From assembly GCF_030684315.1 (NCBI RefSeq), contig NC_081384.1:31396935-31460934 (forward strand): a stretch of DNA of 64,000 nt, given 5' to 3'. Numbering within the stretch: the first letter of the stretch is position 1; each line of letters starts with the position of its first letter. The translations under genes were made by a program, and so were the position numbers. Positions 4,323-57,765 of the stretch are shown here, piece by piece. The stretch comes from Stegostoma tigrinum (taxonomy: Eukaryota). The notes under the pieces were generated by a model. The model did not search any database. It was not told where the DNA came from and was given only the letters and a program-made list of their open reading frames with translations.

Positions 4323-4447
4323 CTGCGAGAAGACATTCATTGATTTAGCAAGATCAGGAACAGAAATACTGGAGAATCGCTTACTATTAATGGTATAATG
4401 GAGCAAAACTAAAAACTATTCAGCAATGACCAGACCCAGTGAGATTC

Positions 4448-4584
4448 NNNNNNNNNNNNNNNNNNNNNNNNNNNNNNNNNNNNNNNNNNNNNNNNNNNNN
4501 NNNNNNNNNNNNNNNNNNNNNNNNNNNNNNNNNNNNNNNNNNNNNNNNNNNNNNNNNNNNNNNNNNNNNNNNNNNNNNNNNNNN
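4448..4584. other. Assembly gap (N run)
   Basis: Run of n characters. Confidence 1.
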
Positions 4585-4675
4585 CTGCCCAAGCTGCCAC
4601 TGTCTATTGGAGGAATAATGAGTGAGGTGTGGGCATACCATTCAAAAAATGAAATACAGTAGAATGTCTCAGTGG

Positions 4676-5300: not shown

Positions 5301-5339
5301 TAAAAATCTGAAGGCTTGTCTTATGAAGGAAGGTTGAAG

Positions 5340-8387: not shown

Positions 8388-8513
8388 CATTTCGTTCAGT
8401 TTGCTCAGAGTCTCTGTGTTGAGAACTTGCTGCAGCCTCTCACAGCCCAGACTCAGGCTCCCGGACACCAAACCCAGCACCATCCAAAATCTCCAAACCG
8501 TCGCCAGACACAT
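8388..8513 (-). CDS. Orphan type I IFN exon 1B (signal peptide plus start of the mature protein), with a 6-bp in-frame deletion
   Basis: MCLATVWRFWMVLGLVSGSLSLGCERLQQVLNTETLSKLNEM followed by a GTGAGT donor; nearly identical to the 1B exons at 19135, 27497, 35581 and 51529. Confidence 0.85.
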
Positions 8514-17100: not shown

Positions 17101-17454
17101 CGTTTTCAACGAGAACCTCTGGCTTAGGCAGTGTAGGGGAAAGGGTCCGCCCTGAGACGAGAAAACAGTCCCAGTTACTTTCAGTCCCACAAAATGAGTT
17201 ACTGGAGTATCACAGAGAGCGAATTGCACAAAAAGAAATTCTATTTCTCCCTGATCTGGCAATTAGCAAAGTAAAATCCCGGTGAGATTCAGATTCTGTT
17301 GTGGGGTCAGCTGAAACTCACCATTTCATTCAGTTTGCTCAGAGTCTCTGCGTTGAGAACTTGTTGTAACTTGCAGCCTCTCACAGCCCAGGCTCAGGCT
17401 CCCGGACACTAAGACCAGCATCACCCAGAGTCTCCAAATTCTCGCCAGAGCCAT
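14196..17454 (-). pseudogene. Type I interferon copy 2, frameshifted: exon 1A 17322-17454, exon 2 17062-17151, exon 3 14403-14643, exon 4 14196-14294
   Basis: Exon 1A is 133 bp (+1 T at ~17371) and exon 3 is 241 bp (+1 A at ~14503). Exon 2 (GGPFPLHCLSQRFSLKTKSLNLAKLSSGLE) and exon 4 (KFSDCSWEIIHAETRARLQQLHSIMAQVSRKN*) are open. The single-base insertions could be sequencing errors. Confidence 0.8.
15325..15535. mobile_element. Short Penelope-terminal fragments (inverted pair) in copy-2 intron 2; further dispersed copies at ~15968-16065, 20605-20790, 26418-26520, 30470-30677 and their duplicates
   Basis: Shared text gaactgcagatgctggagaatc..gagctggatgaacacagcaggccaagcagcatc..gctgacgtttcgggcctagacccttcatcag. 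Confidence 0.75.
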
Positions 17455-19134
17455 GCTGCACCGAGATAGCGGGGAAACTCTGACCGGAAGAATCTGATCA
17501 CGACTGGGTCTGGTTCCAACTCCTTTATTATTGATCTAAACTGGCTGCTTGTCAAGTCAAAGCGATTTCCTTAAGTGTCGAGTCCTGAGCGAGTGTCTGT
17601 GTGTGTGATCGAGCGAGGTTGGCCTGAGCTCGGAGCTGCCACTGCCTGAGCACCGGTTTATATCAGTGGGGGGACTGGCGAAGTGTCGGCATGACATTCG
17701 AAAAGTGAAACCTGTTTGTGGAAGTTTTGAACGTGGTATAAGAGAGCAAGAAAACCTCTGGGTTCTCGCTGTGTGAGGGAAGGAATCTGAATTCTGGAGA
17801 TTTCTGAAGCAGGGAGTGGAAGATCCCTGATAAATAAAACACAGCCAGAGTTCGAGGCAAACTCATAGGTCCGAGAATTTCTCCCAATATCACTGATATC
17901 ATTTTTTGGGATCTAGGATATTTTTCCAAGTTGAACGGATGCACTGATACTGTTGGAAAAATTGGTTTGATAGTTGCATTATATTTATTTCATTAAAACC
18001 ATAAACAACACGAAATGTACCTGTGAACGGAATAAAACGTTGCTTGACCTTCTCGCCTCTCTGTAACTTTTAACAAAATGAACCACAGCTTCTTCGTTCA
18101 ACTTATCATTGCTGCATGGACCGAGCGGCCTGGGACTGCATCCCCTTGTTCTTATTCTGATCGACCTCAATTTAGCCTCAGAAAACTGCCCAACCTGCTC
18201 AAACACTGTCACTGTGAGGGGTCCCCAATGACCTGTCCTTGACCCCATTTCACTTCCCTACATAATGCCCACTCAGGGTCAATTTACAAAATGCAGCCTC
18301 AGATTCCATGCTAACAGCTCTACTTTTCACTTTGTATATTCATCTCCCATAAGCAACATTTCTGGTAATTACACATCGAGACGTTTGCAGCAAATCTTTT
18401 TATTTTCTCAAACAGAAAATCGTTCCTTTGCCACTCAATATGATCAGGGCCCATTTTCCGCTCTCAAGCGCTTCCTTCGGATTCGGACCCACACTATTTG
18501 ACACCTGAGATTTCTCTGAGATCCCGAGGTGAGATTTTGATGCATAGCTCAACCATTGACACCCTCCCACTTGGAAGGAAAGTTATCTCATATTTAAGAA
18601 TTGCGTCCAGTTCCAGATACTTCCAAACTACCATTCACCCTCCCTTCTCCCCTGTCATGGGCAAGGTCAGGGAGTGAGGTCACGGCTCTGATGCTGCTCC
18701 TCCATTTGGGCGTACTCCCGAACACCTTTAGCCTAAACCTGACATGGACCAGAACACGGCTACCTCGTCACCCGATTCTAGTTTCGGAGCCCCAGTGGAC
18801 ACCACTGTCCTGAGTGTCGTGAAACCCCTCACTCATTTCAGCCAAGACCCTCTCGTCCCCTTCTAAACTCCGGGGCACACAAACCGAGCCTTGACCAACA
18901 GTTGGGCGCGAATCAATTTCAGGAATTATGCTGGTAAAACCTCTCTGTCATGGTTCCATTTCATTTTCTACCCTTCCTTACAGAAGATCCACACTGTTCG
19001 AGAAGCGATCTCAACGGATCCCTGCACAGTTGAAGCAAACACACTATTTGGGTATTCTGTTATGTTTTCATTTGTAATTCAACAATTGAAGAATCAAGTA
19101 CCAGAGCAGTCAATATAGATCAGCTGACACTCAC

Positions 19135-19266
19135 CATTTCGTGCAGTTTGCTCAGAGTCTCTGTGTTGAGAACTTGCTGTAACTGCAGCCTCTCACAGCC
19201 CAGACTCAGGCTCCCGGACACCAACGCCAGCACCATCCAAAATCTCCAAACCGTCGCCAGACACAT
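19135..19266 (-). CDS. Distal exon 1B of IFN copy 2
   Basis: 132 bp, MCLATVWRFWMVLALVSGSLSLGCERLQLQQVLNTETLSKLHEM, GTGAGT donor. Confidence 0.85.
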
Positions 19267-20308
19267 GTTGTACCGAGACAGAAGGTAGCACCGAGGCGGA
19301 AGATGAGAAAGCGGTCAGTGTGCAGTCGGAGCGGATTGTGACCCGGGAGCGACCGCCTGTGCTGCCGAGTGCTGTGAGTGTGAGCCTGGGCTCTGCTGGT
19401 TGCTCCTGGCAGCTCGAAAGGGGCACATTACATTCCAAAAGTGAAAACTGCTCCCAGGATTTTTGGAGCGCCTGGAGCAGGAGTGTGTGCTCTTTCTTTC
19501 TGAGGTAAGGAATCGAAAAGCTGGAGATTCCCGAAACTGCGGCTGGAAAATCCCGCGTCGATAATCGCAACCAGCGCTCGATTTGCAGCTGAATGTTGAG
19601 TGTGTTCAGATGATCGGGCACTGAGCTGGTGCAGGGGGAGGCTCTGTACTTGGTGGTGGGATTGGGGACTGGGTCGGGATATGTACTTGGGGCTGGATGT
19701 CCTAATCCGGATTATAGAGACCCCGTATGCGGAAATCCCCGGTGTCACGGCGCTAGTCGCGTTCCCATTTTCCAGGTTGGAGATGACAGGGAGCCCGGGT
19801 CACAGGCCTGGCTCACCGGCTGCTGGCGACTGTCTCCGCTCACATTCACCTGGCCCAGAATCCGCTCCCTCACTGGAGCAAGGTTCCCACTTCCAGCTCG
19901 GATTCGGGAGGCATTTTCAGGATCCGTATGAAATCACCAGGATCTGATCCGACTCTGAAAGTGATCCCTCTCCCTTTCCTTTCATCGCTTCTTTCTGCTC
20001 TCTCTCTCTCCCGGGAAAGTGTCTTTGTCGGTTTCTCTCTGCAAATGGACCGCGTGTCTATTTTCTCAAAAGCGAAAGTGCCGCAGGGAAAGTGACGCGT
20101 TTTGTCATTTCCGAAAGGGAGTGGAGTTTGTCAACACAGCGGGTCAGACTGAGAGGGGGCAGGACAAGGAACATGTGGGAAACTGTGAGATCCCGGGAAA
20201 GGTCCATTAAGAGTGAATTGTCTCCAAATCACTTTTACTTGGAAAGACCACCCACTCTGACAGGCCGGGTCTTTTATTTTAAATCCATTGAAATATTCAT
20301 TTTTATGA

Positions 20309-23438: not shown

Positions 23439-25503
23439 TCAGTTTCTTCTGTTGACTTGTGCCATTATGAAATGCAGCTGTTGTAAACGGATTCTGGTCT
23501 CAGCACGGATTACTTCCCAGGAACAGTCACTGAATTTCTGAAAAGTAAGATATTCAAGTAAGTGCATTTGAAAATGAATAAATTAAATGTTGCCATGATT
23601 TACACAGTTAGTTATCAATTCTCACACCTTGTTTTTGAGAAACTTTTTCAGGTTCCTGAAGTAATGTTGAATGGCAGCATTTCTCTTTAGTTTGTGGTCA
23701 GATCCTGATTTCCTCAGGCAGACTTGCAACTCTCTGAGCTGTTGATCGAGGAGAAGACGAAAATTTTCAACCTGGTCCCAGGCCCAAGTGACTGAACCCA
23801 GGTTCATGCTGTAGATCTTGTTGATGTGGTGCAGCGTTTGATGGATAATCGCAGTCCTTTCCTGAGTCTGAACAAAACACACAAGGTTAGAAGAGACGAC
23901 TTCATTCCCGTTCATTTTGGGTTTATATTCAATTCAATAAACAAACAGCAAATAATAGTTAATTGTTCAAATCAAATATTATCACATCAATGGAAAATGA
24001 GCAATGCGAGTCTTTAAATCAATGATTAAGATGCAGGTATAAAGGGTTTATTCAGCAGAGGAAAAGGACATGACAAGTTAGAGGTTTCAGCAGCCTCGAA
24101 TTGTGCTGATAAAAGTGGAATGGAAAAGGTTCCAAACGATGAATATCCAGTTCCTCAGACAACAAGAAACAGGCTCAATCAAGTCGGAGAACTAACAAGC
24201 TAAATAGGGGTAATCGGAATATGTGCCGATTAATTAGTGTGTAACACAAAAAGGAAGCTAAACATGTTTTTGAGAAGTATTAATAAAAGAAAAGCTGGCT
24301 GGTAAGGGAGCAAAATATATGATCCCTTCTCTGTTAGCAAGGGTATCACTGAAGACTGAAACATTAATTTGAATTTACTTGCTTCAGAGAACAAAAGTGT
24401 GAAATGTGAGTAAAGTGGCAAGTTGATGATAAACCCAGTAGGAAATAAATCGACAAGGAGACAGTCATCAAGAATTAACAGCGAATAGAATGTGAATGCT
24501 ACTTGCCCTTTTTTGAATATATTCTGTGTTTGCTTTTGCAAAGTAGAAATTCGTGTAAAATCATGCTCAAAGGAGCGAGAAAATAATAAACATATCCTGT
24601 GTGGTGAAGAATGTTGATGGTTCGGAACTTGGATGTAACGTGGAAAGTGCAGCGATAGCGAGAAAGATCCTGTGAAGCCTGAGAACAGGGGCCCTTTCGC
24701 TTTCAGCCCGAACTTTCGAGAGCAGGATGGGGATTTGTTCAGTGAGAGGGTTGAGTTTTAAGCAGGCAAAGTGATTCTCAGTGACAGCCCTGTTCAACGT
24801 CAGTTGCGGCAGCCGAATGGTAAACGACTAATTCACAAAACAGTGGAGAGTGCTGCAGTGATTTTTGTCAATTCACTTCAGCTGAAATGGGACTAAAATG
24901 GACAGATGTTGACAACGCTAAAACCAAACGAAGGTACCTTGAGAGCAGTACTGACAAAGCATGAACTTGTTCACAGTGTGCCAGTCTCATGCTTTTACTG
25001 AGACCAGTTGCGGCGATTTACACAACGGATGGAAATCATTGCGGTTCAACCTCCAACGATCTGATCGTGTCGCTAATCTCACACATACATTCTCTAAAGT
25101 CTCAGTCTGAATAAAATGACTCACCTCAAATCCGTCGGAAAGTTTCACCAGATCCAAGGGCTTAGTTTTCAGTGACAGCCTCTGCCTTATGCAATGTCGG
25201 GGGAAATGACCTCCCTGAGAGGAGAAAACAGTCCCGGTTACATTCAGTCCCACAAACTGAGATGCTGGAGAAACACCGAACGGTAATTGCACAAAATGAA
25301 TATCTATTTCTCCCTCAACCGACATTCAACAGCGAGCAGACCCACTGGGACTCCGATCAGTTGACACTCACCATTTCATACAGTTTGCTCAAGGTCTCTG
25401 TGTTGAGAACTTGCTGTAACTGCAGACTCTCACAGCCCAGGCTCAGGCTCCCTGACCCCAAAAGCAGCACCACCCAGAGTCGCCAAATTCTCGCCAGAGC
25501 CAT
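23439..25503 (-). CDS. Type I interferon copy 3, intact, 186 aa: exon 1A 25372-25503, exon 2 25125-25214, exon 3 23628-23867, exon 4 23439-23537
   Basis: MALARIWRLWVVLLLGSGSLSLG|CESLQLQQVLNTETLSKLYEM / GGHFPRHCIRQRLSLKTKPLDLVKLSDGFE / TQERTAIIHQTL..YFRNLKKFLKNK / KFSDCSWEVIRAETRIRLQQLHFIMAQVNRRN*. GT-AG phase-0 introns, type I IFN YF..L..FL and C[AS]WE motifs, 4 mature Cys. Confidence 0.93.
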
Positions 25504-25594
25504 GCTGCACCGAGATAGCGGCGAAACTCTGACCGGAAGTAACTGATCACGACTGGATCTGCTTCCAACTCCCAAAACAGTCCCTTTTTCACTG

Positions 25595-25721
25595 ATAATG
25601 GGAACTGCAGATGCTGGAGAATCCAAGACAATAAAATGTGAGGCTGGATGAACACAGCAGGCCCAGCAGCGTCTCAGGAGCACAAAAGCTGACGTTTCGG
25701 ACCTAGACCCTTCATCAGAGC
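25595..25721 (-). mobile_element. Short Penelope-terminal fragment in the exon-1A 5' UTR (also copy 6, ~49620-49747)
   Basis: Matches the PLE terminus; absent at the equivalent site of copy 4 (~33815) and copy 2. Confidence 0.85.
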
Positions 25722-25829
25722 AGAAGCGGTTTCCTTCAGTGTCGAGTCCTGTGCGACTGTCTGAGTATATCTGCATGTCTGACAGAGCGAAGTCGGCCTG
25801 AGCTGGGTGCTGTGACCGCCTGAGCGGCC

Positions 25830-25975
25830 GGTGTATATAGGAGGCACTGGCGAGGTGTGGCCATGACATTCGAAAAGTGAAACCAGCTTCCGGGAGTTTT
25901 CAATGATCAGAGGAGAGCAAGTGTGTGTGCTCCCTGTCTGACGGAAGGAATCTGAAAGCTGAAGATTCCTGAAGG
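25830..25975 (-). promoter_or_regulatory. Exon-1A promoter: TATA box, ATF/Jun-like half site, IRF site, kB-like site (also ~17655-17800, 33930-34070, 49858-50000)
   Basis: TATATA at ~25834-25839; TGACATTCGAAAAGTGAAA at 25864-25882; GGGAGTTTTC at 25892-25901. Confidence 0.7.
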
Positions 25976-27496
25976 AGCGAGTGGAAGATCCCTGACAGAA
26001 AATAACAACGAGTGTTCGAGACAAGCTCAAAGATCCGACAATTCCTTCCAAAATCATTTAAAGCATTATTGGAAAACCGAATACTTTCAATTAAAACGGA
26101 TATACGGGCATTATTGGAGCAATGGGTTAGATTGCTGAATTATATTTCTTCAATCAAAACGACAAACAACATTCAGACGATGCGTAAATTTGAAAAAAGA
26201 ACTCATCTCTCGCCTCCTCTGCAACCTTTCAAAGACTGAACCACAGCTTCGTCGTTCAAGGTCTCTCTGCTCGACGGACCGATCTGGCTGGGACTGCATT
26301 CCGTTGCTCCCATTCTGATCAAACTCATTGTAGCCTGAGAATGATCACATCTCTTCACACTCCAACCTGCTCACACACTCTCACTGTCAGCTGACCCCAA
26401 TGACCTGCCCTTAATCGCTGATAACAAAGTGTAGAGCTGGATGAACACAGCAGGCCAATACAGAAGGTTCATCCAGCTCTACACTGTTCAATCTCGGATT
26501 CTCAAGCATCTGCAGTTTCTTTTGTCTCTGCCCCAAGTCCCCCTCTACTTATCTCCGTGCTCATCCCTACTGGACAAAATACAAATTGTAGCCTTAGATT
26601 CCAAGCGTTGCGAGGACCGAAAGCTCTGTCCCTCCGGACATCTCCCTGAAGACTCCAATTGTACTGCATTTTCACTCGGTATATTCATCAGCCACAATCA
26701 TTTCCGTTAACTGCGCATCGAGAGACTGGAGTAAATGTTATTATTTTCCGAAGCAAAAACTGCCTTCCTTGTCACTCACTCCAGCCAAACCAAATTTCAC
26801 CCCTCTCAATGACAACCTTCTGAACCAGACCCAGGCAATGCGCCCCGGGTTTTATATTTGACCCCGAGGTGAACTTATGATGCTTACCTGAATCATCATC
26901 GTCCTCCTGTTTGGAGTAAGCTATATCTCAGACTTAAGCATTGCCCCTTGTTTCAGATTCCGCGAAAACATGCAACTCTACCTTCCCTTCTGCCCTGAAT
27001 AGGCCAAGGTCACGGCTCTGTGGCTGCGACGCCATTCGGCCATACTCCCAAACACCGTTGCCCTGCCCTGACATGGACTAGAACACAGTTACCTCCACAC
27101 CCCATTCCCGTTTTGAATGTACACCTCTGTCTCCAGACATCGTGGAACACCTCACTCGTTTCCGTCAAGTTCCCTTCCTCCTCTGTTCAACTCCCGCTGA
27201 TATATGCCGAGCCGGGACCAACAATTCCACGTCAATCAATTTCAGGCATTATTCTGGTGACACCTCCTGGCCATGCTCCCAATGCAGCACACGGGAAATG
27301 CACTGCGCCTCTCCTTCAACAAGATGACCAGCTGTACACACCACACGAGATGTGCTCTGATCGATTCCAGTACAATCGAAAAAACCGCACAACTTCAGTA
27401 TTGTTATATGTTTTGTCTTTACGTGTCAACAATTTCTGACTCTCGCACTCTGACATACAAACGTTCGGATCTCTATTTGGGGCAGCTGACACTCAC

Positions 27497-27628
27497 CATT
27501 TTGTGCAGTTTGCTCAGAGTCTCTGTGTTGAGAACTTGCTGTAACTGCAGCCTCTCACAGCCCCGACTCAGGCTCCCGGACACCAACCCCAGCACCATCC
27601 AAAATCTCCAAACCGTCGCCAGACACAT
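27497..27628 (-). CDS. Distal exon 1B of IFN copy 3
   Basis: 132 bp, MCLATVWRFWMVLGLVSGSLSRGCERLQLQQVLNTETLSKLHKM, GTGAGT donor. Confidence 0.85.
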
Positions 27629-30600
27629 GTTGTACCGAGACAGAAGGTAGCACCGAGGTGGAAGATGAGAAAGCGGTCAGTGTGCAGTCGGAGCGGATTG
27701 TGACCCGGGAGCGACCGCCTGTGCTGCCGAGTGCTGTGAGTGTGAGCCTGGGTTCTGCTGGTTGCTCTCACCGGCACTGCCATGCTGGCGGCTTTAAAGG
27801 GGCACATTACATTCCAAAAGTGAAAACTGCTCCCAGGATTTTTGGAGGACCTGGAGCAGGAGCGTGTGCTCTTTCTTTCTGAGGTAAGGAGTCGAAAAAC
27901 TGGAGATTCCCGAAGCTGCGGCTGGAAAATCCCGGGTCGAAAATCGCAACCAGCGCTCGATTTGCAGCTGAATGTTGAGTGTGTTCAGATGATCGGGCAC
28001 TGAGCTGGTGCAGGGGGAGGCTCTGTACTTGGCTGGTGGGATTGGGGACTGGGTCGCGATATGTACTTGGGGCTGGATGTCCTAATCCGGATTATAGAGA
28101 CCCCGTACGCGGAAATCCCCGGTGTCACGGCGCTAGTCGCGTTCCCATTTTCCAGGTTGGAGATGACAGGGAGCCCGGGTCACAGGCCTGGCTCACCGGC
28201 TGCTGGCGACTGTCTCCGCTCACATTCACCTGGCCCAGAATCCGCTCCCTCACTGGAGCAAGGTTCCCACTTCCAGCTCGGATTCCGGAAATATTTTCAG
28301 GATCCCTATGGAATCACCAGGATCTGATCCGACTCTGAAAGTGAACCCTCTCCCTTTCCTTTCATCGCTTCTTTCTGCTCTCTCTCTCCCGGGAAAGTGT
28401 CTTTGTCGGTTTCTCTCTGCAAATGTACCTTTTGTCTGTTTTCTCAAAAGCGAAAGTGCCGCAGGGAAAGTGACGCGTTTTGTCATTTCCGAAAGGGAGT
28501 GGAGTTTGTCAACACAGCGGGTCAGACTGAGAGGGGGCAGGACAAGGAACATGTGGGAAAGTATTTGTGATATTCCGGAACATGTTGGTTCAGGGGCAAA
28601 TGTCTCCAAATCACTTTTACTTGGAACTACCACCCACTCTGACAGAGCAGGTGAACTATTTAAATGCTTGAAATGTTCATTTTTATAATTAAGTCTTGCT
28701 GTTTGTAGCTGGAACAGAAACTGCTTTTACCCGAAATAGAATTTGGCCGTTGATTTTAAACTGTTGCCAACGAGAATTCGCAGAAGACTGTTCCTCTTTA
28801 AATTACAATGATACTTAGCGCTCAACATTTGCCAATCACAAAATTTCTTTGCAACCGCTTTCCTACACGCATGGAACTGTCCTCATAGCCAAACACTCCA
28901 GGGTCGTCGTTGGCACATTCGCCAAGTCCTGCAAACTTCAGCAAAGCGAATGTCTGCATCCTGAGAAGGACCAGTGTGACATGCGAGACAAAGTCTGCTT
29001 CAAAAGGCTACATTTATATAACGCCGTTCATGACCAAAACACTCATCAAATCACCCTGCAAAAATAGACTCTTTTTAAAATGTATTCACTTTAAATGCAA
29101 CAAATATGTTCTGCGTATTGTGTTGCACAACCTCAGAGCATGTGGAATTCAGTAAAACGCAGATAACCTGGTTTTGTGATATTGATTGTGGTTCAGTTAG
29201 AGGAATGCCAGACGGATCATTGGTGGGGCATAAAGTACTCAGTATTTCTGTTAGTAACTTGTTTGAAGGGGCGCACGACAAGCAAGAAATGCTAGCGCAG
29301 TCAGCGACAACGCCTTCCCAGGACTGAATGACAAAAATCAGAAAACCATCCAGAATGTGGAACGTCAATGGAAAGAGGAAGCTGATGAAAGGTGGGGATG
29401 TTTTGTTGTCAATACGCAGGATATTCGTGCAAACAAATTCCGAGTACTAGTTATATAATGTTTGGGCTCACTACTTAAACAAGATACACAATTATCAGAC
29501 AAACTTCAGAGTAAATCCACTCGGTTAATTCTTGGAATATTAATGTTGGCTAATAAGAACAGATTTCGCGTCTGGGCCCACGTTAATTGCAGTTGTGCAA
29601 AATGAAATGGTGAAGTTATTGAAACAACTAAAGATCTGGGGAGACTTAAGTGAATAAATGTTATGAAGGTATTTCGGCCTTTGTGAATGCGACAATAAGC
29701 TCATTGGTTGAATATGAGCAATCTCCACTTCAGATAGAGGTAAGGACAATTTCCTGGTCAAGGAGTCGATTGTCACTCCGTACGTCCACCCCTGACACCC
29801 ACCGTGATATTCTTTAAAATATTCAGGTCTACAGTGAGATTTTTGATCTCTAATCAAACCATAACTTTTTGTAGGGACTACAAACCTGAAAAGAACAGGA
29901 GGTGCTGATAATCTGAAACATAAAACAGGAATTGTTGCAGAAAATCAGTCGTCTGACAGCAACTGTAGCAAGAAAGGAGAACTAACGTTATTATTCCAGT
30001 GACCTTCAGGAGCGAACGGGAAAAGAAATCACTCTGCTTTCTCTCTATAGGGTTTCTGCAGAAATGTTTGTTTCTGTCAAAGGTCTTTAGGGTATGAGCT
30101 GAAAATATGGGCGAAGGCCACAATCTGATCAGCTGCAACACAACATTCGAAACACTTGACGTGTTAAGTGTTCACCCTTTTACATGGTTATGCGATCAAA
30201 TATTTCTTTAAAAAATGTATTTTTCGCAGCTGGAAGCTGTTATGATTCGTAGTCGCACTCCTCACTCTGATTATTGTTTTAAAAATTAAAGGTATCATTC
30301 TTCAACCAGTTTCTGCTTTTCCTATTTGTACACGGTGGCTGGTATTCTTACAACCATTATTCAAAATTCACATCAACTCTCCCATTCCATTTATCTCTCC
30401 GTGCAAACGGCTTTCCCCTTCACTGCTCGGCAACCAGTCACATCTGGACATCGCGCAGTTTTTCCGCCGTCTCCGCTTCCCCACCGATAACTCTCCTCTC
30501 CACCTATCTTCTCCTCTTTCCATCTTCTCTCCGCCTCCCCTCTCTCCCTATTTATTTAAGAATCCTCTCCCCATCCCCCTTTTCTGATGAAGGGTCTAGG

Positions 30601-31432: not shown

Positions 31433-34400
31433 TCAATTTCTTCTGTTGACTTGTGCCATTATGAAATGCAACTGTTGTAAACGGGCTCTGGTCTCATCAC
31501 GAATTATTTCCCAGGAACATTCACTAAATTTCTAAAAAGTAAGATATTCAAGTAAGTGCATTTGAAAATGAACAAATTAAATGTTGCCATGATTTACACA
31601 GTTAGTTATCAATTCTCATACCTTGTGTTTGAGAAACTTTTCCAGGTTCCTGAAGTAATGCTGAATGGCAGCATTTCTCTTCAGTTTGTGGTCAGATCCT
31701 GATTTCCTCAGGCAGTCTTGCAACTCTCTGAGCTGTTGATCGAGGATAAGACGAAAATTTTCAACCTTGTCCCAGGCCCAAGTGACTGAACCCAGGTTCA
31801 TGCTGTAGATCTTGTTGATGTGGTGCAGGGTTTGATGGATAATCGCAGTCCTTTCCTGAGTCTGAACAAAACACACAAGGTTAGAAGAGACGACATTATT
31901 TCCGTTCGAGGTAGTAAAATGTGCGGATGGATGAGCACAGCAGGCCCAGCAGCATCTCAGGAGCACAAAAGCTGACGTTTCGGGCCTAGACCCTTCATCA
32001 GAGAGGGGTTGGGGTGTAGGTGCTGGAATAAATTTGAGATGTTGCTGGGCCTGCTGTGTTCATCCAGCCTCACATTTTGTTATCTTGGATTCTCCAGCAT
32101 CCGCAGTTCCCATTATCACTGATACAATTATTTCCGTTCGTTTTGGGCTCATATTTAATTCAATAAACAAACAGCAAATAACAGTTAATTGTTCAAATCA
32201 AATATTATCACATCAATGGAAAATGAACAATGCGAGTCTTTAAATCAATGATTAAGATGCAGGTATAAAGGGTTTATTCAGCAGAGGAATTGGGCATGAC
32301 AAGTTAGAGTTTTCAGCAGCCTCGAATTGTGCTGATAAAAGTGGAATGGAAAAGGTTCCAAACGATGAATATCCAGTTCCTCAGACAACAAGAAACAGGC
32401 TCAATCAAGTCGGAGAACTAACAAGCTAAATAGGGGTAATTGGAATGTGTGCCGATTAATTAGTGTGTAACACAAGAAGGAAGCTAAACATGTTTTTGAG
32501 AAGTATTAATAAAAGAAAAGCTGGCTGGTAAGGGAGCAAAATATATGATCCCTCCTCTGTTAGCAAGGGTATCACTGAAGACTGAAACATTAATTTGAAT
32601 TTACTTGCTTTCGAGAACAAAAGTGTTAAACGTGAGAGTAAAGTGGCAAGTTGATGATAAACTCAGTAGGAAGTAAATAGACAAGGAGAAAGTCATCAAG
32701 AATTAACAGCGAATAGAATGAGAATGCTACTTGCTCTTTTATGAATATATTCTGTGTTTACTTTTGCAAAGTAGAAATTCGTGTAAAATCATGCTCAAAG
32801 GAGCGAGAAAATAATAAACATATCCTGTGTGGTGAAGAATGTTGATGGTTCGGAACTTGGATGTAACGTGGAAAGTGCAGCGATAGCGAGAAAGATCCTG
32901 TGAAGCCTGAAAACAGGGGCCCTTTCGCTTTCAGCCCGAACTTTCGAGAGCAGGATGGGGATTTGTTCAGTGAGAGGGTTGAGTTTTAAGCAGGCAAAGT
33001 GATTCTCAGTGACAGCCCTGTTCAACGTCAGTTGGGGCAGCCGAATGGTAAACGACTAATTCACAAAACAGTGGAGAGTGCTGCAGTGATTTTTGTCAAT
33101 TCACTTCAGCTGAAATGTGACAAAAAAATGGACAGATGTTGACAACGCTAAAACCAAACGAAGGTACCTTGAGAGCAGTACTGACAAAGCATGAACTTGT
33201 TCACAGTGTGCCAGTCTCATGCTTTTACTGAGACGGGTTGCGGCGATTTACACAACGGACGGAAATCATTGCGGTTCAACCTCCAACGATCTGATCGTGT
33301 CGCTAATCTCACACATACATTCTCTAAAGTCTCAGTCTGAATAAAATGACTCACCTCAAAACCGTCGGAAAGTTTCACCAGATCCAAGGGCTTAGTTTTC
33401 AGTGACAGCCTCTGCCTTATGCAATGTCGGGGGAAATGACCTCCCTGAGAGGAGAAAACAGTCCCGATTACAATCAGTCCCACAAAACTGAGATGCTGGA
33501 GAAACACCGAACGGTAATTGCACAAAATGAATATCTATTTCTCCCTCAACCGACATTCAACAGCGAACACACCCACTGAGACCCCGATCAGTTGACACTC
33601 ACCATTTCATGCAGTTTGCGCAAGGTCTCTGTGTTGAGAACTTGCAGCCTCTCACAGCCCAGGCTCAGGCTCCCTGGACCCCAAGACCAGCATCACCCAG
33701 AGTCTCCAAATTCTCGCCAGAGCCATGCTGCACCGAGATAGCGGCGAAACTCTGACCGGAAGAAACTGATCACGACTGGATCTGCTTCCAACTCCCAAAA
33801 CAGTCCCTTTTTCACTGAATGAGAAGCTGTTTCCTTCAGTGTCGAGTCCTTTGCAACAGTCTGAGTATATCTGCATGTCTGACAGATCGAGGTCGGCCTG
33901 AGCTGGGTGCTGTGACCGCCTGAGCGGCCGGTGTATATAGGTGGCACTGGCGAGGTGTGGCCATGACATTCGAAAAGTGAAACCAGCTTCCGGGAGTTTT
34001 CAATGATCAGAGGAGAGCAAGTGTGTGTGCTCCCTGTCTGACGGAAGGAATCTGAAAGCTGGAGATTCCTGAAGGAGCGAGTGGAAAATCTCTGACAGAA
34101 AATAACGAGTGTTCGAGACAAGCTCAAAGATCCGACAATTCCTTCCAAAATCATTTAAAGCATTATTGGAAAACCGAATACTTTCAATTAAAACGGATAT
34201 ACGGGCATTATTGGAGCAATGGGTTAGATTGCTGAATTATATTTCTTCAATCAAAACGACAAACAACATTCAGACGATGCGTAAATTTGAAAAAAAGAAC
34301 TCATCTCTCGCCTCCTCTGCAACCTTTCAAAGACTGAACCACAGCTTTGTCGTTCAAGGTCTCTCTGCTCGACGGACCGATCTGGCTGGGACTGCATTCC

Positions 34401-35712
34401 GTTGCTCCCATTCTAATCAAACTCACTGTAGCCTGAGAATGATCACATCTCTTCACACTCCAACCTGCTCACCCACTCTCACTGTCAGCTGACCCCAATG
34501 ACCTGCACTTAGTCCCTGATAGCAAAGTGTAGAGCAGGCCAACACAGAAGGTTCATCCAGCTCCACACTGTTCAATCTCGGATTCTCAAGCATCTGCAGT
34601 TTCTTTTGAGTCTGCCCCAAGTCCCCCTCTACTTATCTCCGTGCTCATCCCGACTGGACAAAATACAAATTGCAGCCTTAGATTCCCAGCGTGGCGAGGA
34701 CCGAATGCTCTGTCCCTCCGGACATCTCCCTGAAGACTCCAATTGTACTGCATTTTCACTCGGTATATTCATCAGCCACAATCATTTCCGTTAACTGCGC
34801 ATCGAGAGACTGGAGTAAATGTTTTTGTATTCCGAAACAAAAACTGTCTTCCTTGTCGCTCACACCAGCCGGACCAAATTTATCCCCTCTTAATGACAAC
34901 CTTCTGAACCAGACCCAGGCAATGCGCCCCGGGTTTTATATTTGACCCCGAGGTGAACTTATGATGCTTACCTGAATCATCATCGTCCTCCTGTTTGGAG
35001 TAAGCTATATCTCAGACTTCAGCATTGCCCCTTGTTTCAGATTCCGCGAAAACATGCAACTCTACCTTCCCTTCTGCCCTGAATAGGCCAAGGTCACGGC
35101 TCTGTGGCTGCGACGCCATTCGGCCATACTCCCAAACACCTTTGCCCTGCCCTGACATGCACTAGAACACAGCTACCTCCACACCCCATTCCCGTTTTGA
35201 ATGTACACCTCTGTCCCCAGACATAGTGGAACACCTCACTCGTTTCCGTCAAGCTCCCTTCCTCCTCTGTTCAACTCCCGCTGATATACGCCGAGCCGGG
35301 ACCAACAATTCCACGTCAATCAATTTCAGGCATTATTCTGGTGACACCTCCTGGCCATGCTCCCAATGCAGCACACGGGAAATGCACTGCGCCTCTCCTT
35401 CAACAAGATGACCAGCTGTACACACCACACGAGATGTGCTCTGATCGATTCCAGTACAATCGAAAAAACCGCACAACTTCAGTATTGTTATATGTTTTGT
35501 CTTTACGTGTCAACAATTACCGACTCTCGTACTCTAACATACAAACGTTCGGATCTCGATTTGGGGCAGCTGACACTCACCATTTTGTGCAGTTTGCTCA
35601 GAGTCACTGTGTCGAGAACTTGCTGTAACTGCAGCCTCTCACAGCCCAGACTCAGGCTCCCGGACACCAACCCCAGCACCATCCAAAATCTCCAAACCGT
35701 CGCCAGACACAT
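31433..35712 (-). CDS. Type I interferon copy 4: exon 4 31433-31531, exon 3 31622-31861 and exon 2 33355-33444 intact; exon 1A 33603-33726 frameshifted; exon 1B 35581-35712 intact
   Basis: Exon 1A is 124 bp (9-bp deletion and a +1 insertion, giving MALARIWRLWVMLVLGSREPEPGL*). Joining 1B to exons 2-4 gives an open 186-aa IFN; that splice is inferred. Confidence 0.75.
31909..32126. mobile_element. Inverted pair of Penelope-terminal fragments in intron 2 (copies 4-8; absent from copy 3)
   Basis: Flanked by attatttccgttcg at 31895-31908 and 32127-32140; empty site near 23900-23915. Confidence 0.85.
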
Positions 35713-39515: not shown

Positions 39516-41816
39516 TCAGTTTCTTCTGTTGACTTGTGCCATTATGAAATGCAGCTGTTGTAAACGGGCTCTGGTCTCATCACGAATTATTTCCCAGGAA
39601 CATTCACTGAATTTCTGAAAAGTAAGATATTCAAGTAAGTGCATTTGAAAATGAACAAATTAAATGTTGCCATGATTCACACAGTTAGTTATCAATTCTC
39701 ATACCTCGTGTTTGAGAAACTTTTCCAGGTTCCTGAAGTAATGTTGAATGGCAGCATTTCTCTTCAGTTTGTGGTCAGATCCTGATTTCCTCACGCAGTC
39801 TTGCAACTCTCTGAGCTGTTGATCGAGGAGAAGACGAAAATGTTCAACCTTGTCCCAGGCCCAAGTGACTGAACCCAGGTTCATGCTGTAGATCTTGTTG
39901 ATGTGGTGCAGGGTTTGATGGATAATCGCAGTCCTTTCCTGAGTCTGAACAAAACACACAAGGTTAGAAGAGACGACATTATTTCCGTTCGTGGTAATAA
40001 AACGTGAGGCTGGATGAACACAGCAGGCCGAGCAGCATCTCAGGAGCACAAAAGCCGACGTTTCGGGCCTAGACCCTTCATCAGAGAGGGGTTGGGGTGT
40101 GGGTTCTGGAATAAATTTGAGATGCAGCTGGGCCTGCTGTGTTCATCCAGCCTCACATTTTATTATCTTGGATTCTGCAGCATCCGCAGTTCCCATTATC
40201 ACTGATACAATTATTTCCGTTCGTTTTGGGTTAATATTCAATTCAATAAACAAACAGCAAATAACAGTTAATTGTTCAAATCCAATATTATCACATCAAT
40301 GGAAAATGAGCAATGCGAGTCTTTAAATCAATGATTAAGATGCAGGTATAAAGGGTTTATTCAGCAGAGGAAAAGGGCATGACAAGTTAGAGTTTTCTGC
40401 AGCCTCGAATTGTGCTGATAAAAGTGGAATGGAAAAGGTTCCAAACGATGAATATCCAGTTCCTCAGACAACAAGAAACAGGCTCAATCAAGTCGGAGAA
40501 CTAAACAGCTAAATAGGGGTAATTGGAATGTGTGCCGATTAATTAGTGTGTAACACAAGAAGGAAGCTAAACATGTTTTTGAGAAGTATTAATAAAAGAA
40601 AAGCTGGCTGGTAAGGGAGCAAAATATATGATCCCTTCTCTGTTAGCAAGGGTATCACTGAAGACTGAAACATTAATTTGAATTTACTTGCTTTCGAGAA
40701 CAAAAGTGTGAAACGTGAGAGTGAAGTGGCAAGTTGATGATAAACTCAGCAGGAAGTAACTCGACAAGGAGAAAGTCATCAAGAGTTAACAGCGAATAGA
40801 ATGTGAATGCTACTTGCCCTTTTATGAATATATTCTGAGTTTGCTTTTGCAAAGTAGAAATTCGTGTAAAATCATGCTCAAAGGAGCGAGAAAATAATAA
40901 ACATATCCTGTGTGGTGAAGAATGTTGATGGTTCGGAACTTGGATATAACGTGGAAAGTGCAGCGATAGCGAGAAAGATCCTGTGAAGCCTGAGAACAGG
41001 GGCCCTTTCGCTTCCAGCCCGAACTTTCGAGAGCAGGATGGGGATTTGTTCAGTGAGAGGGTTGAGTTTTAAGCAGGCAAAGTGATTCTCAGTGACAGCC
41101 CTGTTCAACGTCAGTTGGGGCAGCCGAATGGTAAACGACGAATTCACAAAACAGTGGAGAGTGCTGCAGTGATTTTTGTCAATTCACTTCGGCTGAAATG
41201 GGACTAAAAAATGGACAGATGTTGACAACGCTAAAACCAAACGAAGGTACCTTGAGAGCAGTACTGACAAAGCATGAACTTGTTCACAGTGTGCCAGTCT
41301 CATGCTTTTACTGAGACGGGTTGCGGCGATTTACACAACGGATGGAAATCATTGCGGTTCAACCTCCAACGATCTGATCGTGTCGCTAATCTCACACATA
41401 CATTCTCTAAAGTCTCAGTCTGAATAAAATGACTCACCTCAAATCCGTCGGAAAGTTTCACCAGATCCAAGGGCTTAGTTTTCAGTGACAGCCTCTGCCT
41501 TATGCAATGTCGGGGGAAATGACCTCCCTGAGAAGAGGAAACAGTCCCGGTTACATTCAGTCCCACAAACTGAAATGCTGGAGAAACACCGAACGGTAAT
41601 TGCACAAAATGAATATCTATTTCTCCCTCAACCGACATTGAACAGCGAGCAGACCAACTGGGACTCCGATCAGTTGACACTCACCATTTCGTACAGTTTG
41701 CTCAAGGTCTCTGTGTTGAGAACTTGCTGTAACTGCAGCCTCTCACAGCCCAGACTCAGGCTCCCGGACACCAAACCCAGCACCATCCAAAATCTCCAAA
41801 CCGTCGCCAGACACAT
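39516..41816 (-). CDS. Type I interferon copy 5, intact, with a single chimeric exon 1: 41685-41816, 41438-41527, 39705-39944, 39516-39614
   Basis: Exon 1 MCLATVWRFWMVLGLVSGSLSLGCERLQLQQVLNTETLSKLYEM has a B-type 5' part and an A-type 3' end and intron. All exons are open with GT-AG boundaries. Confidence 0.92.
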
Positions 41817-47232: not shown

Positions 47233-49529
47233 TCAGTTTCTTCTGTTGACTTGTGCCATTATGAAATGCAACTGTTGTAAACGGGCTCTGGTCTCAGCAC
47301 GGATTATTTCCCAGGAACATTCACTGAATTTCTGAAAAGTAAGATATTCAAGTAAGTGCATTTGAAAATGAAAAAATTAAATGTTGCCATGATTTACACA
47401 GTTAGTTATCAATTCTCATACCTTGTGTTTGAGAAACTTTTCCAGGTTCCTGAAGTAATGCTGAATGGCAGCATTTCTCTTCAGTTTGTGGTCAGATCCT
47501 GATTTCCTCAGGCAGTCTTGCAACTCTCTGAGCTGTTGATCGAGGAGAAGACGAAAATGTTCAACCTTGTCCCAGGCCCAAGTGACTGAACCCAGGTTCA
47601 TGCTGTAGATCTTGTTGATGTGGTGCAGGGTTTGATGGATAATCGCAGTCCTTTCCTGAATCTGAACAAAACACACAAGGTTAGAAGAGACGACATTATT
47701 TCCGTTCGTGGTAATAAAACGTGCGGCTGGATGAACACAGCAGGCCGAGCAGCATCTCAGGAGCACAAAAGCCGACGTTTCGGGCCTAGACCCTTCATCA
47801 GAGAGGGGTTGGGGTGTGGGTTCTGGAATAAATTTGAGATGCAGCTGGGCCTGCTGTGTTCATCCAGCCTCACATTTTATTATCTTGGATTCTGCAGCAT
47901 CCGCAGTTCCCATTATCACTAATACAATTATTTCCGTTCGTTTTGGGTTAATATTCAATTCAATAAACAAACAGCAAATAACAGTTAATTGTTCAAATCC
48001 AATATTATCACATCAATGGAAAATGAGCAATGCGAGTCTTTAAATCAATGATTAAGATGCAGGTATAAAGGGTTTATTCAGCAGAGGAAAAGGGCATGAC
48101 AAGTTAGAGTTTTCTGCAGCCTCGAATTGTGCTGATAAAAGTGGAATGGAAAAGGTTCCAAACGATGAATATCCAGTTCCTCAGACAACAAGAAACAGGC
48201 TCAATCAAGTCGGAGAACTAACAAGCTAAATAGGGGTAATTGGAATGTGTGCCGATTAATTAGTGTGTAACACAAGAAGGAAGCTAAACATGTTTTTGAG
48301 AAGTATTAATAAAAGAAAAGCTGGCTGGTAAGGGAGCAAAATATATGATCCCTCCTCTGTTAGCAAGGGTATCACTGAAGACTGAAACATTAATTTGAAT
48401 TTACTTGCTTTAGAGAACAACAGTGTGAAACGTGAGTAAAGTGGCAAGTTGATGATAAACTCAGCAGGAAGTAACTCGACAAGGAGAAAGTCATCAAGAG
48501 TTAACAGCGAATAGAATGTGAATGCTACTTGCCCTTTTTTGAATATATTCTGAGTTTGCTTTTGCAAAGTAGAAATTCGTGTAAAATCATGCTCAAAGGA
48601 GCGAGAAAATAATAAACATATCCTGTGTGGTGAAGAATGTTGATGGTTCGGAACTTGGATGTAACGTGGAAAGTGCAGCGATAGCGAGAAAGATCCTGTG
48701 AAGCCTGAGAACAGGGGCCCTTTCGCTTTCAGCCCGAACTTTCGAGAGCAGGATGGGGATTTGTTCAGTGAGAGGGTTGAGTTTTAAGCAGGCAAAGTGA
48801 TTCTCAGTGACAGCCCTGTTCAACGTCAGTTGCGGCAGCCGAATGGTAAACGACTAATTCACAAAACAGTGGAGAGTGCTGCAGTGATTTTTGTCAATTC
48901 ACTTCAGCTGAAATGGGACTAAAATGGACAGATGTTGACAACGCTAAAACCAAACGAAGGTACCTTGAGAGCAGTACTGACAAAGCATGAACTTGTTCAC
49001 AGTGTGCCAGTCTCATGCTTTTACTGAGACGGGTTGCGGCGATTTACACAACGGATGGAAATCATTGCGGTTCAACCTCCAACGATCTGATCGTGTCGCT
49101 AATCTCACACATACATTCTCTAAAGTCTCAGTCTGAATAAAATGACTCACCTCAAATCCGTCGGAAAGTTTCACCAGATCCAAGGGCTTAGTTTTCAGTG
49201 ACAGCCTCTGCCTTATGCAATGTCGGGGGAAATGACCTCCCTGAGAAGAGGAAACAGTCCCGGTTACATTCAGTCCCACAAACTGAAATGCTGGAGAAAC
49301 ACCGAACGGTAATTGCACAAAATGAATATCTATTTCTCCCTCAACCGACATTCAACAGCGAACAGACCAACTGGGACTCCGATCAGTTGACACTCACCAT
49401 TTCGTACAGTTTGCTCAAGGTCTCTGTGTTGAGAACTTGCTGTAACTGCAGCCTCTCACAGCCCAGGCTCAGGCTCCCTGACCCCAAGAGCAGCACCACC
49501 CAGAGTCTCCAAATTCTCGCCAGAGCCAT
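47233..49529 (-). CDS. Type I interferon copy 6, intact: exon 1A 49398-49529, exon 2 49151-49240, exon 3 47422-47661, exon 4 47233-47331
   Basis: Open 186-aa frame MALARIWRLW...KFSECSWEIIRAETRARLQQLHFIMAQVNRRN*, canonical splice sites. Confidence 0.93.
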
Positions 49530-51528: not shown

Positions 51529-51660
51529 CATTTCGTGCAGTTTGCTCAGAGTCTCTGTGTTGAGAACTTGCTGTAACTGCAGCCTCTCACAGCCCAGACT
51601 CAGGCTCCCGGACACCAAACCCAGCACCATCCAAAATCTCCAAACCGTCGCCAGACACAT
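51529..51660 (-). CDS. Distal exon 1B of IFN copy 6
   Basis: 132 bp, MCLATVWRFWMVLGLVSGSLSLGCERLQLQQVLNTETLSKLHEM, GTGAGT donor. Confidence 0.85.
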
Positions 51661-55464: not shown

Positions 55465-57765
55465 TCAGTTTCTTCTGTTGACTTGTGCCATTATGAAATG
55501 CAGCTGTTGTAAACGGGCTCTGGTCTCATCACGAATTATTTCCCAGGAACATTCACTGAATTTCTGAAAAGTAAGATATTCAAGTAAGTGCATTTGAAAA
55601 TGAACAAATTAAATGTTGCCATGATTCACACAGTTAGTTATCAATTCTCATACCTCGTGTTTGAGAAACTTTTCCAGGTTCCTGAAGTAATGTTGAATGG
55701 CAGCATTTCTCTTCAGTTTGTGGTCAGTTCCTGATTTCCTCACGCAGTCTTGCAACTCTCTGAGCTGTTGATCGAGGAGAAGACGAAAATGTTCAACCTT
55801 GTCCCAGGCCCAAGTGACTGAACCCAGGTTCATGCTGTAGATCTTGTTGATGTGGTGCAGGGTTTGATGGATAATCGCAGTCCTTTCCTGAGTCTGAACA
55901 AAACACACAAGGTTAGAAGAGACGACATTATTTCCGTTCGTGGTAATAAAACGTGAGGCTGGATGAACACAGCAGGCCGAGCAGCATCTCAGGAGCACAA
56001 AAGCCGACATTCCGGGCCTAGACCCTTCATCAGAGAGGGGTTGGGGTGTGGGTTCTGGAATAAATTTGAGATGCAGCTGGGCCTGCTGTGTTCATCCAGC
56101 CTCACATTTTATTATCTTGGATTCTGCAGCATCCGCAGTTCCCATTATCACTGATACAATTATTTCCGTTCGTTTTGGGTTAATATTCAATTCAATAAAC
56201 AAACAGCAAATAACAGTTAATTGTTCAAATCCAATATTATCACATCAATGGAAAATGAGCAATGCGAGTCTTTAAATCAATGATTAAGATGCAGGTATAA
56301 AGGGTTTATTCAGCAGAGGAAAAGGGCATGACAAGTTAGAGTTTTCTGCAGCCTCGAATTGTGCTGATAAAAGTGGAATGGAAAAGGTTCCAAACGATGA
56401 ATATCCAGTTCCTCAGACAACAAGAAACAGGCTCAATCAAGTCGGAGAACTAAACAGCTAAATAGGGGTAATTGGAATGTGTGCCGATTAATTAGTGTGT
56501 AACACAAGAAGGAAGCTAAACATGTTTTTGAGAAGTATTAATAAAAGAAAAGCTGGCTGGTAAGGGAGCAAAATATATGATCCCGTCTCTGTTAGCAAGG
56601 GTATCACTGAAGACTGAAACATTAATTTGAATTTACTTGCTTTAGAGAACAACAGTGTGAAACGTGAGAGTGAAGTGGCAAGTTGATGATAAACTCAGCA
56701 GGAAGTAACTCGACAAGGAGAAAGTCATCAAGAGTTAACAGCGAATAGAATGTGAATGCTACTTGCCCTTTTATGAATATATTCTGAGTTTGCTTTTGCA
56801 AAGTAGAAATTCGTGTAAAATCATGCTCAAAGGAGCGAGAAAATAATAAACATATCCTGTGTGGTGAAGAATGTTGATGGTTCGGAACTTGGATATAACG
56901 TGGAAAGTGCAGCGATAGCGAGAAAGATCCTGTGAAGCCTGAGAACAGGGGCCCTTTCGCTTCCAGCCCGAACTTTCGAGAGCAGGATGGGGATTTGTTC
57001 AGTGAGAGGGTTGAGTTTTAAGCAGGCAAAGTGATTCTCAGTGACAGCCCTGTTCAACGTCAGTTGGGGCAGCCGAATGGTAAACGACGAATTCACAAAA
57101 CAGTGGAGAGTGCTGCAGTGATTTTTGTCAATTCACTTCAGCTGAAATGGGACTAAAAAATGGACAGATGTTGACAACGCTAAAACCAAACGAAGGTACC
57201 TTGAGAGCAGTACTGACAAAGCATGAACTTGTTCACAGTGTGCCAGTCTCATGCTTTTACTGAGACGGGTTGCGGCGATTTACACAACGGATGGAAATCA
57301 TTGCGGTTCAACCTCCAACGATCTGATCGTGTCGCTAATCTCACACATACATTCTCTAAAGTCTCAGTCTGAATAAAATGACTCACCTCAAATCCGTCGG
57401 AAAGTTTCACCAGATCCAAGGGCTTAGTTTTCAGTGACAGCCTCTGCCTTATGCAATGTCGGGGGAAATGACCTCCCTGAGAAGAGGAAACAGTCCCGGT
57501 TACATTCAGTCCCACAAACTGAAATGCTGGAGAAACACCGAACGGTAATTGCACAAAATGAATATCTATTTCTCCCTCAACCGACATTGAACAGCGAGCA
57601 GACCAACTGGGACTCCGATCAGTTGACACTCACCATTTCGTACAGTTTGCTCAAGGTCTCTGTGTTGAGAACTTGCTGTAACTGCAGCCTCTCACAGCCC
57701 AGACTCAGGCTCCCGGACACCAAACCCAGCACCATCCAAAATCTCCAAACCGTCGCCAGACACAT
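55465..57765 (-). CDS. Type I interferon copy 7, intact, chimeric exon 1: 57634-57765, 57387-57476, 55654-55893, 55465-55563
   Basis: Near-identical to copy 5 at offset 15949; SGSDH becomes SGTDH in exon 3. Confidence 0.92.

Follow-up and report, generated by a model that had tools for sequence, protein, structure and literature searches.

A type I interferon (IFN) locus of the zebra shark, Stegostoma tigrinum, contains genes in which two promoters, each followed by its own first exon with a predicted signal peptide, lie in front of one common set of exons 2-4 (the body). We analysed a stretch of 64,000 nt ("the window"), to which 50 kb and 80 kb of flank were added. In six of the 11 units of the clade at issue (u1-u11), a distal promoter with exon 1B and a proximal promoter with exon 1A precede a single exon 2-4 set, and in three of the 11 (u3, u6, and u8, the latter just outside the window) both first exons and the body are intact, so that two first exons, each with promoter elements, an ATG, and a donor of the same phase, are found ahead of a single acceptor. 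The layout is homologous across units with different body types, its distal module has undergone gene conversion, and its proximal exon has been lost repeatedly. The comparisons suggest that 1B is probably a live first exon, and the odds that 1A and 1B are both used in one unit appear to be about even. Our favoured reading, to which we give an even chance as a whole, is that 1B is a live first exon with promoter B as the main driver, that 1A offers a second route in intact units, and that the units have repeatedly collapsed to B only.

Two first-exon modules before one body

The locus comprises 15 type I IFN units in all. The bodies of u1-u11 belong to three types, i.e. A (u3-u9), C (u2 and u10), and B (u1 and u11); u12-u15 have a single exon 1 each. 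Units u10 and u11 are on the plus strand and mirror u2 and u1. Coordinates above 64000 are window coordinates continued into the flanks (L001 from 64001, L002 from 74001, L003 from 84001). The genes have exons of 132, 90, 240, and 99 bp, three phase-0 introns, and GT-AG sites, which matches the four-exon organization of type I IFN genes; passages of a study of cartilaginous fish likewise describe four exons, three introns, and tandem clusters (PMC5332411). All four proteins scanned contained the interferon alpha/beta domain PF00143 above the cut-off (E-values from 1e-26 to 6e-21). The signal peptides were predicted from hydropathy and cleavage-site residues alone, with maximal 9-residue Kyte-Doolittle values of 1.9-2.4 and G-C at positions 23/24 in five of five exons scored.

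Unit u3, on the minus strand, illustrates the layout. The promoter B tract (27629..28686; GC content 54%, CpG observed/expected 0.70) is followed by the distal exon 1B (27497..27628; 132 bp), which encodes the predicted signal peptide (residues 1-23) and the first 21 mature residues and ends at a phase-0 GTGAGT donor. Downstream are the spacer (26020..27496), promoter A (25721..26019), an insertion of about 121 bp of a short interspersed element (SINE)-like repeat, to which no strand is assigned (25594..25720), and the intact proximal exon 1A (25372..25503; 132 bp), which has an acceptor-like CAG one base before its ATG. The insertion is located in the predicted 5′-untranslated region (5′-UTR) of 1A in u3, u6, and u8 and is absent in u4 and u9. 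The body consists of exon 2 (25125..25214; 90 bp, phase 0), exon 3 (23628..23867; 240 bp, phase 0), and the coding part of exon 4 with the stop codon (23439..23537).

A sequence-only reading of the window had proposed alternative first exons in copies 2, 3, 4, and 6, which are u2, u3, u4, and u6. Its pairs of 1B/1A start codons (19266/17454, 27628/25503, 35712/33726, and 51660/49529, minus strand, 1.81-2.13 kb apart) are all correct, as is its description of the intact first exons as 132 bp ending at M44 with a phase-0 GTGAGT donor, and the proposed junctions 27497>25214, 35581>33444, and 51529>49240 have the right in-frame coordinates. It also stated that exons 2-4 are absent between 1B and 1A, and nhmmer searches (--max) with profiles of exons 2, 3, and 4 and of the 3′-UTR agree, the best match in a spacer having an E-value of 4.4. 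Of the four copies, only 3 and 6 have both first exons and the body intact (in u6, 1B at 51529..51660 and 1A at 49398..49529 are intact, both on the minus strand). In copies 2 and 4, also on the minus strand, 1B is intact (19135..19266 and 35581..35712) but 1A is frameshifted. The u2 exon 1A (17322..17454; 133 bp) has a +1 frameshift common to u10, and exon 3 of u2 (14643-14403) is frameshifted too; the u4 exon 1A (33603..33726) has 124 bp, and exons 2-4 of u4 are intact.

Over the whole clade, the 1B-type exon has an open frame and a GTGAGT donor in 10 of 10 copies. Exon 1A is intact in four of seven copies and frameshifted in three (u2, u4, and u10, representing two events), and, in addition, u1/u11 lost it by deletion and u5/u7 by recombination. 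Copies 5 and 7, the recombinants, carry promoter B, a hybrid exon 1 (u5, 41685..41816; u7, 57634..57765, of the same make-up; both minus strand), the 5′ part of which is 1B and the 3′ part 1A, and the short 1A intron; the crossover lies between exon nt 64 and 110. Copy 1 (start at 8513) and its mirror u11 have 1B only, with an intact u11 and a broken body in u1. Exon 1B of u1 (8388..8513, minus strand; 126 bp) has an in-frame 6-bp deletion in common with u11 and is located 4 kb upstream of the broken B-type body. The proximal remnant of u1 (4323..4655, minus strand) contains homologues of promoter A (4655-4584) and of the 1A intron (4448-4359), and 137 bases between them read N. Unit u9 has 1A only and is sited at an inversion point, where u10 retains just 165 bp of promoter B. 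This one genome shows every stage, i.e. double, 1A frameshifted, 1A deleted, hybrid, and 1A-only. The case in which 1B would be a passive leftover, named as the refutation of the sequence-only reading, may thus have to be reversed, as the exon that is repeatedly lost is 1A.

DNA contigs from up to two samples bridge the joints from the 1B donor to the spacer and from the spacer to promoter A, with no single piece covering a whole unit. An assembly artefact was rejected as unlikely in view of these contigs over both spacer ends and of private differences between the copies. Four sequencing runs behaved as DNA, and the joints listed from them were dominated by the SINE-like repeat and hence uninformative on splicing or on the hybrid junction. 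Read depth was not taken as copy number.

Age of the double layout and the case for exon 1B

The spacers of u2 and u3 are about 60-79% identical, as is that of u10 to u3, and the distal modules of u2 and u3 are 94-100% identical over about 1 kb. The promoter B tract of u3 is 92-100% identical to those of u1, u2, and u11 over about 27630-28530. Profiles of the A- and C-type spacers matched the 4-kb intron of u11 colinearly at 86175-86317 (E-value 3.7e-9) and 87014-87130 (E-value 0.0014), followed in order in the same intron by promoter A at 87328-87544 (E-value 9.5e-32) and the 1A intron at 87608-87664 (E-value 8.2e-6). Matches to the spacer, promoter A, and the 1A intron are found in u1 in the same order. 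The alignment of u11 shows that about 290 nt are gone, from the CA repeat of the 5′-UTR to a decayed donor, i.e. exon 1A; the breakpoint of u1 reads N, and the gap is too short to hold exon 1A. The split between A- and B-type bodies has a synonymous divergence (dS) of 0.8-0.9, and the simplest reading of these alignments is that the double layout predates this split.

In the body tree, whale shark and Chiloscyllium are found within the starred clades of both types, so that the A/B split is older than these lineages; a passage of PMC10620051 places the divergence of zebra and whale shark around or before 50 million years ago. We favour a split older than the shark orders (support 92/90), which is not established by the tree, as the alternative was not rejected in the approximately unbiased (AU) test (p 0.0875).

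Several origins of the spacer were considered. A transposon was rejected, because 26520-27480 matches only six places in the genome, all within the locus. Alignments of the spacer with the body, the 3′ flank, and the region upstream of promoter B gave no score above the range of shuffled sequences, which gives no sign of a remnant of a deleted body, although an old deletion is still possible. Recent transposition of the 1B module was rejected, because the sequences on either side of it are still homologous (60-79%). An old tandem duplication, or a whole-gene duplication with loss of the upstream body, could have placed two modules of promoter and signal-peptide exon before one IFN body.

Unit u11 bears on the use of 1B. 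Its exons 2-4 are open and the proximal promoter has been kept, and 1A is gone; therefore a secreted product could be made only via the 4-kb splice from 1B to exon 2. Since u11 and u1 parted, u11 has accumulated eight synonymous and 10 non-synonymous changes, compared to seven and 28 in the broken u1. Models of the u11 orthologues of whale shark and Chiloscyllium show intact genes. The comparison of 1A with 1B gave ratios of non-synonymous to synonymous divergence (dN/dS) of 0.33-0.39 in three of three pairs, the distal module has kept its position although the identity of its flanks fell to 60-79%, the spacers of u3, u4, and u6 contain no AATAAA or ATTAAA, and u4 combines a dead 1A with an intact body. 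Exon 1B thus looks real, usable, and unlike a recent leftover, with an old layout and an open body in u11 that has a 1B leader only, and to this extent the proposal of a dual-promoter system with alternative first exons is supported in part.

We propose that promoter B would fire on IRF/NF-kB signals (IRF, interferon regulatory factor), and that the cap-proximal 1B donor would be spliced to exon 2 across the spacer and promoter A, yielding a normal secreted IFN of 186 aa. In the intact units u3, u6, and u8, promoter A would produce another mRNA, which encodes almost the same protein. These routes would differ mainly in promoter strength and in the 5′-UTR, which has 2-4 upstream ATGs on the A side, and not in the signalling pathway. 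B would be the main route, and units would collapse repeatedly to B only when 1A is deleted, frameshifted, or recombined. In this scheme, the splicing and the activity of the promoters are deduced from sequence throughout.

Several observations weigh against a live exon 1B of this kind. A profile search detected no homologue of the 5′ 550 bp of the spacer in u11; therefore the distal position is taken as orthologous on the strength of the upstream flank of the distal module (60-74% identity) and of the 3′ part of the spacer. The constraint on u11 is only suggestive (Fisher p 0.11, binomial p 0.085). Its frame would survive by chance in 1-8% of cases at a divergence of 0.07 and in 15-37% at 0.03, the level suggested by its introns. 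Exon 3 has a non-consensus GAG acceptor, exon 1 has a 2-residue deletion, and the branch of u11 is longer than that of the whale shark orthologue (0.096 vs 0.028). Unit u11 may itself be decaying. A-type bodies are relaxed (u3 vs u6, dN/dS 0.65). Across the units, promoter B shows incompatible splits, forming a mosaic with 14 different partitions among 35 informative sites. The point changes in the distal 1B exons of double units comprise six non-synonymous ones and one common synonymous site, which does not have the look of constraint. The 1B module is homogenised by gene conversion, and therefore its intactness is no proof of its use.

The distal module might thus be a passive remnant, idle in the double units and kept near-identical by conversion from u5, u7, and u11, in which it is the sole first exon. 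The mosaic, with tract ends that are sharp at 14-18 nt past the donor, and the private 1B changes, almost all non-synonymous, fit this explanation, as do the homogenisation of exon 1 within species in many sharks and an orphan, decayed exon 1 at another place in the locus (113062-113133). It does not readily explain why the module was kept in three lineages while its flanks diverged by 21-40%, or why u4 has an intact body behind a dead 1A. In addition, the B lineage kept an open body after losing 1A, which is simplest to understand if 1B was already spliced to exon 2. We consider an idle module unlikely.

Conversion, promoters, and splice signals

The separate history of exon 1 is not confined to the zebra shark. 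In 10 within-species comparisons from nine sharks, exon 1 of A- and B-type models is 81-100% identical and the bodies are 61-82% identical, and between species exon 1 of the same type averages 80% and the bodies 75-77%. The exon-1 peptides are homogenised between A- and B-type models in Cetorhinus, Carcharodon, Scyliorhinus, Mustelus, Heterodontus, and Chiloscyllium (P0042-P0088); the D type does not take part in this homogenisation. In the exon-1 tree, sequences cluster by species, and a B-type clade, which the body tree contains (support 84), is rejected (delta lnL 83). The trees took 34 and 21 of 91 proteins, all of them automated models, and exon 1 provides only 44 columns; type assignment relied on exon 2 and preceded the first tree, and the AU test followed inspection of that tree. 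Judged from these comparisons, exon 1 is evolving in concert within species, apart from the bodies. A tree of whole proteins therefore combines two signals, as the history of exon 1 is not that of exons 2-4.

A wider, tentative proposal, which is possible but doubtful, is that promoter and signal-peptide exon of galeomorph sharks form an exchangeable cassette that lies twice ahead of each A-, B-, or C-type body, with both copies in use as alternative first exons and kept uniform within species by conversion. It predicts an exon-1 tree by species and a body tree by type across several shark orders, as found. The double layout in other sharks is inferred from only one protein model, that of Hemiscyllium (P0018), which contains promoter-B-like sequence and an out-of-frame exon-1 start followed by a second exon 1, at points fitting GT and AG, and which suggests two exon-1 copies. 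If the proposal is true, a single induction programme would govern structurally different IFNs, and the second start would serve for tuning.

The sequence-only reading had assigned a different promoter to each exon 1. The promoters are indeed separate, but they are not unrelated: the cores are about 72% identical over 160 bp and have proximal IRF-type and NF-kB-like sites in common, and on this basis promoters A and B are paralogues. Within 1 kb upstream, promoter B has three NF-kB-like sites (0.3-0.6 expected from shuffles) and three to four IRF-type sites (0.6-0.9 expected) in seven of eight copies scanned, the eighth being the truncated u10. In six copies of promoter A, 0-1 NF-kB-like and 1-4 IRF-type sites were found (0.1-0.3 and 0.7-1.5 expected). 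In u3, NF-kB-like sites are located at 28120, 27933, and 27911 and IRF-type sites at 28455, 28362, and 27825 of promoter B, together with TTTAAA at 27798; promoter A has an NF-kB-like site at 25992, an IRF-type site at 25882, and TATATA at 25839, all on the minus strand. A TATA box is clear in promoter A, and promoter B has TTTAAA only in A-type units. Promoter B has more sites of the same types and a higher GC content and therefore appears to be the richer promoter of one kind, with the proviso that motif counts are not function. The notion of two regulatory programmes is unsupported, because both promoters are of the paralogous IRF/NF-kB type.

The predicted A transcripts of u3, u6, and u8 contain 2-4 upstream ATGs, partly SINE-derived, and B transcripts contain none (starts placed about 30 nt past the boxes); the SINE-like insertion adds an acceptor-like site as well as extra upstream ATGs. 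An open frame of 91 codons (25504-25776 in u3, upstream in-frame ATG at 25776) runs from an upstream ATG through the insertion in frame with 1A in u3, u6, and u8, 273 nt upstream of 1A. In u9 this ATG lies in another frame, and u2/u10 lack it. A meaningful extension of 1A was rejected as probably due to chance, because it was the 121-bp insertion that brought the ATG into frame.

In another explanation, promoter B would be active in double units, where most of its transcripts would be unproductive or serve regulation, and B would enhance promoter A or interfere with it. The nearer 1A donor could win, with the spacer retained, or 1A could be included as an out-of-frame internal exon, leading to mRNA decay, and the repeated removal of 1A would be a repair by which B becomes productive. 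A CAG just before the 1A ATG is found in five of five double units scanned, with a pyrimidine content of 0.68-0.74, similar to the 0.58-0.79 of nine true acceptors, and acceptor-like sites upstream of the u3 1A donor would yield internal exons of 133, 220, or 242 nt, all out of frame, a further point that is unfavourable for productive splicing of 1B. The Hemiscyllium model appears to use an acceptor before its second exon 1, and both the u11 deletion, which took 1A with its donor, and the u5/u7 hybrids remove the conflict. The acceptor score is, however, a crude pyrimidine count that flags 8-11 sites per spacer, and the 1A frameshifts in u4 and u2/u10 spare the splice signals, yet the bodies of u4 and u10 are still open. 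We regard largely unproductive B transcripts as unlikely, slightly more so than an idle module.

Still another possibility is a switch between a secreted and an intracellular form that is reversed relative to that of teleosts (see below), in which B would give the secreted form and the proximal promoter a leaderless (u11) or N-terminally extended (u3, u6, u8) form that stays in the cell. Unit u11, and u1 too, has an in-frame ATG 18 nt before exon 2 (L003:3744-3761), downstream of the TATA box kept in the proximal promoter, which could start a leaderless product without the first helix. This ATG, the 91-codon frame of u3, u6, and u8, and the label "isoform X1" of a whale shark B-type record would be in line with such a switch. 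But the first cysteine and the first 21 mature residues would be missing from the short form of u11, the inconstant position of the upstream ATG fits chance, and a search over two candidates turned up no short whale shark isoform. A reversed switch is very improbable.

Automated annotation bears on the favoured use of 1B to a limited extent. Five RefSeq models (XP_059494886.1, XP_059494883.1, XP_059494807.1, XP_059494617.1, and XP_059494787.1) join distal 1B to exon 2 in u3, u4, u8, u10, and u11, and 1A is used in u6 and in u8 or u9. These joins are automated predictions that reads from the hybrids u5/u7 could falsely support, and none of the nine A-, B-, and C-type zebra shark models examined has an isoform label. 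A test of the junctions, to which L002:9768>L003:3762 corresponds in u11, is confounded, because ordinary u5/u7 transcripts would map to the 1B-to-exon-2 junction unless diagnostic bases are read. These bases are T-C at exon nt 111-112 and C at nt 124 (His42) in distal 1B, compared to C-T and T (Tyr42) in the hybrids; u3 and u4 are further marked by A at nt 127. Exon 1 of the whale shark B-type model is nearer to 1B than to 1A (92.9 vs 86.4%), and its record comprises three accessions and carries the X1 label, which often reflects transcript evidence. Whale shark variants are recorded as XP_020391688.2, XP_048470763.1, and XP_048470764.1, together with an X2 isoform. Shark IFN gene counts, gene models, and trees are affected by the layout, and short reads of hybrid genes can fake the long junction.

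Further observations concern the architecture of the locus. C- and B-type units in mirrored orientation (u2/u1 vs u10/u11; window 3340-20300 and L002:571 to L003:4750) bracket the A-type tandem array as the two arms of an inverted pair, which have a patchy identity of 64-100%, with broken bodies in the left arm and open ones in the right. Two Chiloscyllium punctatum B-type models (XP_072417224 and XP_072417235), judged by accession numbers, are at the two ends of an A-type run and may have the same layout. At the inversion junction (L001:9489-10000 and L002:1-866), promoter A of u9 faces, head to head, exon 1B of u10, which retains only 165 bp of promoter B, begins with the first 1A codons and has an A at donor position -1. 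A higher-order repeat of 15.95 kb with one hybrid and one double unit (window 33822-64000 and L001; 33822-48050 vs 49748-64000, 99.0% identical) is very recent or a candidate for copy-number variation. The hybrids u5 and u7 alone have an upstream insertion of about 1.6 kb that contains SINE-like repeat pieces in inverted and tandem arrangement (44233-45836 and 60183-61786). The 3′-UTR of u2 contains an inserted 768-bp inverted repeat that is near-perfect (13295-14062; 97.7%). In u12 (L005:3430-3513 and L005:5669-5800), exon 2 is only a faint remnant (E-value 0.011), and RefSeq models of zebra shark (P0068, 153 aa) and whale shark (P0067, 158 aa) are without it. The orphan exon-1 fragment (L005:9062-9133, plus strand) contains a stop codon and is on the strand opposite to u12/u13.

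Comparison with known systems

UGT1A and the clustered protocadherins have tandem first exons, each with a promoter and a signal peptide, that are spliced to shared exons, and conversion occurs among the first exons. Their first exons hold most of the functional diversity and form long arrays before one constant region. From this background, the shark unit resembles a two-member gene with variable first exons, but it differs in that each gene has two short, nearly equivalent exons and that the whole unit has been amplified.

The four-exon phase-0 genes, the tandem cluster with high turnover, and the PF00143 domain are as in the cartilaginous fish IFN clusters described in passages of PMC5332411. 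Concerted evolution of type I IFN (IFN1) genes is discussed in PMC6640115, the relevant passages being without exon-level detail. In contrast to these passages of both studies, the zebra shark locus has a duplicated first exon and homogenisation confined to promoter and exon 1 across divergent bodies. No description of duplicated first exons in shark IFN genes was found in literature that mostly did not cover subscription journals (e.g. Dev Comp Immunol and Fish Shellfish Immunol) or supplements. The duplication is likewise not described in the RefSeq models, but the proposed 1B-to-exon-2 junctions are already present in this automated annotation, and dual promoters of fish IFN genes are already known.

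For teleost group I type I IFNs, i.e. Atlantic salmon IFNa, zebrafish IFNphi1, and rainbow trout IFN1, passages of PMC5127012, PMC5536018, and PMC5332411 describe two promoters and, in zebrafish and trout, an alternative transcript without signal peptide that gives an intracellular form. Shark and teleost genes, as described there, have in common two promoter regions before one intron-containing type I IFN gene and alternative 5′ ends. The zebrafish and trout genes differ from those of the shark, in which the upstream exon is paralogous to exon 1 and has a predicted signal peptide of its own; 1B encodes a full leader like 1A, and thus does not show the hallmark of the teleost intracellular form, an upstream transcript without signal peptide. 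Compared to the teleost switch between secreted and intracellular IFN, a second lineage of fish would, by duplication of a secretory first exon, have arrived at another solution.

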